From Nitrospirota bacterium (GTDB lineage Bacteria > Nitrospirota > UBA9217), in contig CAVUCU010000005.1 in NCBI GenBank assembly GCA_963740085.1, positions 32,001 to 96,000 of the forward strand: a stretch of DNA of 64,000 nt, in the 5' to 3' direction. Position numbers and translations under genes: made by a program. The notes below the pieces were generated by a model. That model was not told the DNA's origin and searched no databases. It worked only from the letters and a program-made list of their open reading frames with translations. The stretch's first letter is position 1. Each line of letters starts with the position of its first letter. Below, in pieces: positions 722-1,159 of the stretch.

Positions 722-1032
722 AGGCGTTGCCGGACCATCACCGACTAGGTGTAGAGATGATAGCCCGTTTTGAGGGGAATCAAGCACCGCGCCGGACAGT
801 GAGTCGAAACCGGTAAGAAGTCTGCAAGTTGAGCGGTCATTCACCGGTTGTTTCACAGGCTCCTATTAAGCGCGGAAGAGCCGAAAGCCCCGAAGTCGAC
901 GGATTGTGCGGAAAGAAAGGAACAATGAGCTTCACAGGGTCTGCTGAGCAGAGCCACAGAAGCAGTCATTGAGATCACCGCAGAGAATCCCCGGCTCAAC
1001 GGAATATCAGTAACGGTCCGCAGGCAACGCCT
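722..1032 (+). ncRNA. Candidate ~310-nt structured non-coding RNA, family unassigned
   Basis: 5' AGGCGTTGCC-GGACC pairs with 3' GGTCC-gca-GGCAACGCCT, followed by a U-run. Nested helices: TGATA/TATCA, CCGTT..GA/TCAACGG, GGGGA/TCCCC, CCGCGC/GCGCGG, AACCGGT/ACCGGTT, TGCGG/CCGCA, CAATGA/TCATTG, GCTTC/GAAGC, TCTGC/GCAGA. No credible ORF. Confidence 0.6.
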
Positions 1033-1159
1033 TTTTTATTCTCATCCCTTCTCCAGGGTCCACCCCGATTCAGCTGCAAAAATCACCCTCCGTACACAAT
1101 CTTTCGCTCGACAAAATAAAAAAAATATTTTAAACTGTTTCTTCGTTAGGAGAGCATCT

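Follow-up and report, generated by a model that had tools for sequence, protein, structure and literature searches.

Results

A multi-helix RNA gene lies between trpE/pabB-like and ybgC-like genes

We analysed a stretch of 64,000 nucleotides (nt) from a Nitrospirota bacterium (GTDB lineage Bacteria; Nitrospirota; UBA9217), which corresponds to positions 32,001 to 96,000 of the forward strand of contig CAVUCU010000005.1 (assembly GCA_963740085.1) and is called the window throughout. The genome from which it comes, G000, is 98.5% complete. Near the left end of the window, between a divergently oriented gene for a chorismate-binding enzyme of the TrpE/PabB family and a ybgC-like thioesterase gene, positions 723-1037 of the plus strand are a stand-alone gene for a multi-helix RNA of ~310 nt (Table 1). 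An earlier reading of the sequence (the original prediction) had pointed to an unassigned structured RNA at this site, and here we describe its fold, its distribution among relatives, the signals that surround it and what they suggest about how the RNA is made.

The minimum free energy (MFE) of window 715-1045 on the plus strand is -122 kcal/mol, compared with -97.0 +/- 5.5 for 100 dinucleotide shuffles (z -4.55), and none of the shuffles (0/100) folded as stably. In the MFE fold, the two ends of the RNA are joined by a closing helix, P1/P1b, with 14 bp and a 3-nt bulge, whose strands lie ~290 nt apart; P1 itself comprises 9 bp, 7 of which are G-C. Within the closing helix follow P2, P3 and P4 and then a three-way junction with two long arms. 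The tip of Arm I carries a conserved 7-nt loop (AAGUUGA, 826-832), and Arm II accommodates an additional inserted hairpin in some relatives. The RNA contains ~100 internal base pairs, and its unpaired parts are short junction strands or loops of at most 8 nt. The small hairpin, the second bulged stem and the two arms that the original prediction had described are all present in this fold and supported by covariation; its bulged closing stem and the U-run that directly follows also stand, with the correction that the stem has 14 bp and not 15. Equally in line with that prediction, the region shows no coding signal: across 47 homologues, the median length of the longest open reading frame (ORF) is 55 aa, compared with 54 aa in shuffles, and the lengths and gap runs of the same homologues are not multiples of 3. 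The minus strand of the region folds equally well (z -5.23), which indicates that fold energy does not fix the strand of the RNA.

Table 1. Features at and around the RNA gene, in window coordinates
Feature	Position	Strand	Description
Structured body	723-1031	+	309 nt; P1/P1b, P2, P3, P4, then three-way junction with two long arms; MFE fold and covariation
Closing helix P1/P1b	723-736 with 1015-1031	+	GGCGUUGCC-GGACC x GGUCC-(CAG bulge)-GGCAACGCC; MFE fold
P1/P1b 5' strand	723-736	+	GGCGUUGCC near-invariant, diverged paralogues included
P1b/P1 3' strand	1015-1031	+	Contains CAG bulge; duplex energy with 5' strand -24.9 kcal/mol
P2 hairpin	739-751	+	CACC / GGUG; MFE fold; covariation helix 3
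P3 and P4 5' strands	758-769	+	UGAUA (P3) and CCGUU (P4), paired with 998-1009; covariation helices 4 and 5
Arm I	774-891	+	Helices from GGGG/CCCC outward to tip hairpin; MFE fold; covariation helices 6-14
Arm II	894-996	+	Ends in GCUUC-ACA-GG-UCUGC / GCAGA-CC-ACA-GAAGC (929-963); MFE fold; covariation helices 15-22
U-run	1032-1037	+	U6 directly after P1
Extended -10 of RNA gene	660-668	+	TGCTATACT; start predicted near 675 from the sequence
boxA-like element	689-699	+	GATCTTTCTAA; 34 nt before first base of closing helix
Chorismate-binding enzyme gene (TrpE/PabB family), 5' part	1-603	-	ORF; divergent from RNA gene
Promoter of trpE/pabB-like gene	591-619	-	TTGACC-17-TAGAAT, sigma-70-like; 10/12 matches; separate from RNA promoter
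ybgC promoter-like site	1108-1136	+	Downstream of RNA terminator
ybgC-like acyl-CoA thioesterase gene	1160-1552	+	Variable neighbour, outside RNA unit

The fold is supported by covariation and is read on the plus strand

For alignment and context we collected 47 distinct full-length copies of the RNA, all of the type termed A below. In a structure-blind MAFFT alignment of 23 sequences, RNAalifold predicted 59 pairs, 30 of which show double compensatory changes. When the pairs of the G000 MFE fold were followed across the 47 sequences, one pair occurred as GC in 19, CG in 9, AU in 8 and UA in 5, and another as AU in 14, CG in 11 and GU in 7. We also built a covariance model, R1, with 313 positions and 80 pairs, which scores the structured body in the window at 302.5 bits. 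The R1-fitted alignment holds 94 full-length matches (90 distinct sequences), and among the distinct sequences 90.0% of paired cells contain standard pairs, compared with 32-47% after the partners were shifted by 1-3 columns; changes on both sides were found in 67 of the 80 pairs, and 0/500 shuffles reached the observed value on any of five covariation measures. Because the R1 alignment is fitted to the model and its sequences are related, we regard the blind MAFFT alignments as the more conservative evidence.

The helices differ in how they vary. P1 pairs are GC or CG in 87-90 of the 90 distinct sequences, and P1b covaries (one pair is AU in 43, GC in 34 and GU in 10). In P2, 94% of cells are paired and all 4 pairs show double changes, and in the helices of Arm I the paired share of cells is 79-98%, and every multi-pair helix there shows double changes. 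Read on the plus strand, the alignment contains 298 G-U and 115 A-C cells among 3760 paired cells; this G-U excess, the position of the U-run after P1 and the orientation of the promoter identify the plus strand as the RNA strand. The original prediction had looked to conservation and covariation in relatives for support, and both the blind alignment and the R1 alignment provide it. Taken together, we conclude that the fold is real and under selection.

The RNA occurs throughout one order and exists in two types

BLASTN homologues were found in 21 of 41 related genomes, all of the window's own family, and R1 matched 27/27 sampled genomes of that family. No full-length match was found in the 123 genomes from 21 other families of Nitrospirota, and the sole R1 match outside the family (G134; 20.8 bits over 73 nt) is weak, partial and unverified. 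The order to which the family belongs holds only this family in the genome collection; across the order, the RNA is present in 62 of 64 genomes, including 32/32 of high quality, and in 19/19 genera, and the two genomes without it have a completeness of 68% and 71%. When the genomes of 185,579 species were scanned with a pattern, 41 stretches matched, all in metagenome-assembled genomes labelled Nitrospirota, Nitrospirae, Nitrospiria or Nitrospiraceae. With a looser pattern, metagenome contigs yielded 102 stretches, and among the 80 listed, 66 have a full-length R1 match and 14 are chance. A single pattern match in a viral contig was also judged to be chance, as it lies in G+C-rich coding-like sequence and has no model match.

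R1 scores are bimodal, with copies at 143 bits or more (type A) or at 84 bits or less (type B). Type A is the universal copy of the order, and G000 contains one copy of the RNA. Type B copies are full-length paralogues that retain the P1 sequence, P4 and the junction nucleotides; some genera have them, at scattered sites or 150-350 nt downstream of type A in a tandem arrangement. The RNA is present in 2-5 copies, which have their own promoters, in several genomes. Two or three copies stand in tandem, with type A first, diverged copies after it and a promoter for each, at G009:C90:11689-12883 and at L015, L167, L194, L131 and L193, and G009 has the maximum of five copies in total. No gene is common to the contexts of type B. 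Upstream of the type-B promoter (TTGACA/extended -10), ~110 nt form a block that is conserved despite differing surrounding genes (e.g., L109:2890-3000 and L177:250-359) and that could be the binding region of a regulator. At one locus (L114:3693-4557, plus strand), a TnpB-like frame with the N-terminal motif KAYKYRLYP, broken into pieces that overlap, lies ~400 nt downstream of a type-B copy; because it was seen at this locus only, it is probably an unrelated insertion.

The RNA belongs to no known family

We searched for known RNAs with the 4227 covariance models of Rfam 15. At gathering thresholds, the only match in the whole window was 5S rRNA at 63702-63818 on the minus strand, and a permissive scan of 560-1200 at E<=10 gave three chance matches (E 4.7-9.1). 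None of 14 loci with type-A and type-B homologues matched any model. In these searches of the window, 560-1200 and the 14 loci, the models for OLE, ROOL, GOLLD, raiA, HEARO and ribozymes were likewise without a match to the RNA. In the literature we found no description of such an RNA in Nitrospirota, although an unnamed motif in the supplement of a survey is possible.

The original prediction had noted that the sequence lacks signatures of RNase P RNA, transfer-messenger RNA (tmRNA) and signal recognition particle (SRP) RNA and is long for 6S RNA, and had left two options, namely a new family or a housekeeping RNA that has diverged strongly. These observations agree with the failure of all four models at this site. 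Even with permissive filters and E<=10, the RNase P RNA model did not match 560-1200, and a bona fide gene (RF00010) lies elsewhere in G000 (C1:1504328-1504700, 265.5 bits). 6S RNA (RF00013) is encoded elsewhere (104.9 bits) and is a single long irregular hairpin of ~185 nt with a central bubble, compared with a three-way junction of ~310 nt here. Genuine tmRNA (RF00023, 193.1 bits) and SRP RNA (RF00169, 73 bits) are also encoded elsewhere, and an ORF signal as expected of tmRNA is missing from the RNA. Because G000 encodes all four housekeeping RNAs at other loci and no Rfam model matches, the option of a diverged housekeeping RNA is excluded, and that of a new family stands.

Other memberships were considered and rejected. 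The best similarity of the RNA to the G000 rrn operon, 20.3 bits, equals the median of 100 shuffles, which does not support mimicry of an rRNA segment, and a separately encoded rRNA fragment was rejected because the 16S and 23S rRNAs of G000 span the full models (1-1533 and 1-2925). A Ro/Y RNA was rejected because G000 has no TROVE-domain protein (PF05731; controls positive) and Rfam gives no match. As every family membership that could be tested failed, we conclude that the RNA is a new family and a member of no known one.

Promoter, boxA-like leader and terminator differ between the two types

The RNA gene has what appears from its sequence to be a strong extended -10 promoter of its own. 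The element that the original prediction had seen upstream, TGCTATACT, is retained in relatives, as TGnTAnnnT occurs at -54 to -81 from the first P1 base in 46 of 47 type-A copies. The predicted leader is ~45 nt long and contains a second conserved motif, GNTCTTT, at -24 to -38 from P1 in 46/47 type-A copies, with GATCTTTGAAA and GGTCTTTGAAA as the commonest forms. Measured from the first base of the extended -10 element, this motif follows after 26-51 nt in 46/47 type-A copies and should therefore be transcribed; the RNA contigs described below end short of the leader. It fits the published boxA consensus GYTCTTTAANA, which was derived for gamma-proteobacteria (PMC5725501). In G000 the boxA of the 16S leader is GGTCTTTGAAAACTAAAT, and this sequence precedes 16S by ~125-135 nt in 14/14 16S leaders recovered from the order. 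A NusB gene is present in G000 (139.7 bits). From these correspondences, the type-A leader motif appears to be an rRNA-type boxA, with a core that matches the 16S-leader boxA of the order.

The U-run directly after P1 is equally well conserved: every one of the 47 type-A copies has T at these columns, except that the last is A in 4. A consensus scan of 540-1200 detected no local hairpin terminator, and the last 90 nt folded alone give just 2-5 bp helices beside the U-run in most type-A copies. Compared with an intrinsic terminator, the gene has the G+C-rich helix followed by a U-run and lacks the local short-loop hairpin. P1/P1b with the U-run is thus the only terminator-like signal of type A.

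Type B is built differently. Its anatomy was examined in 24 of the 26 matches below 90 bits, leaving out one duplicate of L128 and one 218-nt partial match. The boxA core was found in 0/24 of these copies. An extended -10 lies at -15 to -17 in 12/24 and at -29 to -32 in five more; in the 12, the first G of P1 or a base beside it should therefore be the transcription start. In 17/24, a separate conserved hairpin terminator follows 46-57 nt after P1. Because type B keeps P1 yet has its own terminator, P1 appears to be a functional part of the RNA and not a mere terminator, and because type-B genes are predicted to start at the first G of P1, this G is probably also the mature 5' end of type A.

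We also observed boxA-like motifs at other stable RNA genes. In the order's RNase P RNA genes (L028, L252-L274), GTTCTTT(GA/CA) lies 12-16 nt before the 5' end in 10/24 genomes, and GNTCTTT occurs within 90 nt upstream in 13/24; L028 is the G000 leader, just upstream of C1:1504700 on the minus strand. No boxA-like motif was found in the 6S, SRP and tmRNA leaders of G000. To judge by these motifs, boxA may have a wider use in this lineage, namely for stable RNAs that are closed by long-range helices.

Contigs from RNA libraries cover the RNA and not its flanks

An index search returned 22 sequencing runs, of which 20 contain some of window 400-1400. We examined four metatranscriptome runs, which come from four studies, all as assembled contigs, from which strand and ends cannot be read. 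Every RNA contig piece falls within 726-1017 of the 400-1400 stretch, and no contig in these runs covers the trpE/pabB-like gene, the leader or ybgC. Long contigs (201-244 nt) match at 99% identity or more, with a depth of up to 130 in one run. The contigs are good evidence that the RNA is present in RNA libraries and give only a hint of its abundance and ends, and the uncovered leader and flanks are not taken as proof of processing. The discrete transcript that had been proposed for this site has a counterpart in these data.

The trpE/pabB-like gene, and not ybgC, is the conserved neighbour

The trpE/pabB-like gene is divergent from the RNA gene, ~75-200 nt from its 5' end, at nearly all of the 47 type-A copies; it is missing there from second or tandem copies and from one locus, which has a phosphofructokinase gene upstream instead. 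An orthologue of the encoded protein matches Pfam Chorismate_bind (E 1e-89) and Anth_synt_I_N, and its scores against the TrpE and PabB NCBIfam models are below the equivalog cut-offs. The downstream side varies, with ybgC and a methyltransferase gene in 19 copies, glgC in 8, and others that include an ABC transporter gene and genes on the opposite strand. In the window, ybgC starts 123 nt past the U-run. We conclude that the conserved linkage is to the trpE/pabB-like gene and not to ybgC. The original prediction had described neither this linkage nor the boxA leader nor the type-B paralogues.

Three other features of the surroundings were recorded. The methyltransferase gene (window 1655-2386, plus strand), which follows ybgC in those 19 of 47 loci, is TrmN-related (tRNA m6A37) and scores far below the equivalog cut-off. 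Behind the trpE/pabB-like gene, just left of the window, the second conserved neighbour is a gene for an SMC-like AAA_23 ATPase of ~580 aa (G000:C5:29222-30973, minus strand). It has an orthologue at L054:1525-3276 (minus strand), and by eye the orthologue at L076 has a long coiled-coil-like middle and two hydrophobic stretches. Orthologues with 44-79% identity are present in 26/27 family genomes and weak relatives with 23-25% in three other families; we do not take this as evidence of a partnership by linkage or profile, because an ordinary order-level orthologue would show the same pattern. At the other end of the window, the 5S rRNA is the 3' end of a complete rrn operon that continues beyond the window end (G000:C5:95964-101095) with 23S (C5:95964-98965) and 16S (C5:99533-101095), and whose 16S leader carries a TTGACA-type promoter besides its boxA.

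Discussion

A proposed boxA-led model for making the RNA

We consider it fairly probable that this locus is a gene for a stable stand-alone non-coding RNA, the founding member of an order-universal family, whose biogenesis is assisted by boxA and Nus factors and which acts as a protein scaffold or component of a ribonucleoprotein (RNP). NusB/NusE and other Nus factors would bind boxA on the nascent leader and remain on RNA polymerase, as in rRNA operons. The complex would shield the untranslated transcript and keep the 5' half of P1 at the RNA exit channel until its 3' half emerges ~290 nt later; closure of P1 beside the U-run would then end transcription. The leader would probably be trimmed afterwards, such that the mature RNA starts at G723, the position at which the paralogous type-B genes would start transcription directly. 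A related arrangement is described for rrn elongation complexes, in which a leader element is held where the RNA leaves the polymerase, so that the strand that follows can be delivered to its distant complement (PMC8632103). We link boxA to termination because type A combines boxA with a terminator made from the closing helix, whereas type B lacks boxA and has a local terminator. Alternatively, boxA may serve to protect the untranslated transcript from Rho.

The proposed role is the weakest step of this model. The near-invariant P1 and junction strands, together with covarying arms of variable length, favour a protein-binding scaffold or RNP component, like 6S, SRP, RNase P and OLE RNAs, and suggest neither a base-pairing regulator nor a cis element.

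Several points weigh against this account as a whole. The neighbouring genes give no functional hint, neither linkage nor phylogenetic profile yielded a partner gene, and no protein partner or ligand emerged, nor a target, for which no search was made. The short boxA motif of 7-11 nt has ~50 further occurrences in the genome, most of them within genes; combined with an extended -10 element it occurs in only five places genome-wide, and it is meaningful only through its fixed, conserved position. The boxA of the G000 RNA gene (GATCTTTCTAA) deviates from the GAAA form, and that boxA functions in this leader is something we infer from motif and position. Nus-modified polymerases are known as anti-terminators, so that aid from Nus factors in forming a terminator is put forward as a hypothesis. 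In the expression data, two of the four runs contain identical contigs and may be one data set, and carry-over of DNA into the libraries is uncontrolled. Finally, the R1 alignment leans towards the model structure, and kinship inflates the shuffle statistics.

Alternative explanations

The RNA might instead act alone, as a ribozyme or as an RNA-only homo-oligomer like ROOL, GOLLD or OLE. Large ornate bacterial RNAs are reported to form RNA-only complexes (PMC12286853), and the size, the many helices and the highly conserved junction nucleotides seen here are the features usually named for such RNAs. Nor is a partner gene linked to the RNA. However, at ~310 nt the RNA has about half the ~600 nt of OLE, and it resembles no ribozyme or ornate-RNA model in Rfam. 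We regard this explanation as unlikely, while it fares best among the alternatives.

It is less likely still that the RNA is a trans-acting regulator, which pairs with mRNAs or acts as a sponge and whose types A and B are differently regulated paralogues, as in multi-copy small RNA families. The 2-5 copies with their own promoters in several genomes, some in tandem, would suit such a role, as would the conserved region upstream of the type-B promoter if it binds a regulator. Yet with ~100 internal pairs the RNA offers only short unpaired stretches for pairing, and a universal single-copy gene with a boxA leader is more what one would expect of a housekeeping RNA.

The remaining explanations are far weaker. 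A miniature inverted-repeat transposable element (MITE) or the guide RNA of a transposon nuclease (omega-RNA) would account for the invariant inverted repeat formed by the ends, for the extra diverged copies scattered in some genomes and for the broken TnpB-like ORF near one type-B copy, but we hold it to be very improbable: G000 has a single copy, synteny is conserved across 19 genera, internal helices carry compensatory changes, the invariant 5' end leaves no variable guide segment, and there is neither a linked nuclease gene nor a match to HEARO or another Rfam model. No more credible is a riboswitch-like attenuator in the leader of ybgC, which lies downstream on the same strand behind a terminator, since ybgC is downstream in just 19/47 copies and has its own promoter-like site in the 123 nt that separate it from the U-run, the conserved neighbour is upstream and divergent, and type-B copies lie in unrelated contexts. 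The poorest candidate is a minus-strand structure that leads into the trpE/pabB-like gene as a long 5' leader, for which the minus-strand fold and the conserved position of that gene could be cited, but which is contradicted by the excess of G-U over A-C on the plus strand, by the plus-strand orientation of U-run, promoter and boxA, and by a promoter-like site for the gene between its start codon and the RNA gene.

Implications

The RNA marks a whole order of uncultured Nitrospirota from soil, sediment and groundwater and can be annotated by covariance model. To our knowledge, large bacterial RNAs with complex folds that are universal in a lineage are rare, and each one characterised so far (RNase P, 6S, tmRNA, OLE and the ornate RNA cages) has opened new biology. 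Its boxA leader makes it possible to test directly whether transcription complexes with Nus factors take part in producing a structured RNA that is not ribosomal, and the contrast between types A and B amounts to a natural experiment on the closure of long-range helices during transcription. A bolder and rather doubtful extension of our favoured model is that the RNA is an order-specific 'fifth housekeeping RNA', made by the boxA/Nus machinery, which works as a new RNP or ribozyme. If this were true, the 5' strand would be held at the polymerase by the Nus complex and the whole folded RNA would be the loop of its own intrinsic terminator, which would be a new terminator logic, and boxA, found on RNase P genes as well, would be a general device for closing the long-range helices of stable RNAs beyond rRNA.

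Comparison with known systems

Among ornate RNAs, OLE, ROOL, GOLLD, raiA and HEARO share with this RNA a complex multi-helix fold, extensive nucleotide conservation and restriction to particular lineages; however, their Rfam models do not match it. OLE is linked to oapA and HEARO to IsrB/IscB, whereas no such protein gene lies beside the RNA studied here, which is also about half as long as OLE. Y RNA/YrlA resembles it in that the ends pair in a conserved stem and some members have several paralogues, sometimes in tandem. Unlike Y RNA with its Ro (Rsr) protein, the RNA is much larger, has no Rfam match and occurs in a genome without a TROVE protein.

The RNA also resembles RNase P, 6S and SRP RNAs. 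Like them, it is encoded by a stand-alone gene with its own promoter, has ends that pair in a long helix, occurs throughout its lineage, mostly as a single copy, and contains internal helices that covary strongly. With the order's RNase P RNA genes it further shares the boxA-like GTTCTTT before the 5' end (10/24 genomes). It differs from all three in its three-way junction with two arms of ~100-120 nt and in its restriction to one order.

A parallel for the leader is that of the rRNA operons, where the same boxA core shortly precedes the 5' half of a long-range helix and the 3' half lies far downstream. This geometry is described for boxA/boxC and the 16S processing stem (PMC8632103), and a survey of boxA targets did not consider non-coding RNAs, by its own statement (PMC5725501). 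Unlike the rRNA leader, the transcript here is 310 nt long and resembles the rrn operon no more than shuffled sequence does, and its long-range helix abuts a U-run, such that closing the helix would end transcription instead of forming an RNase III site.

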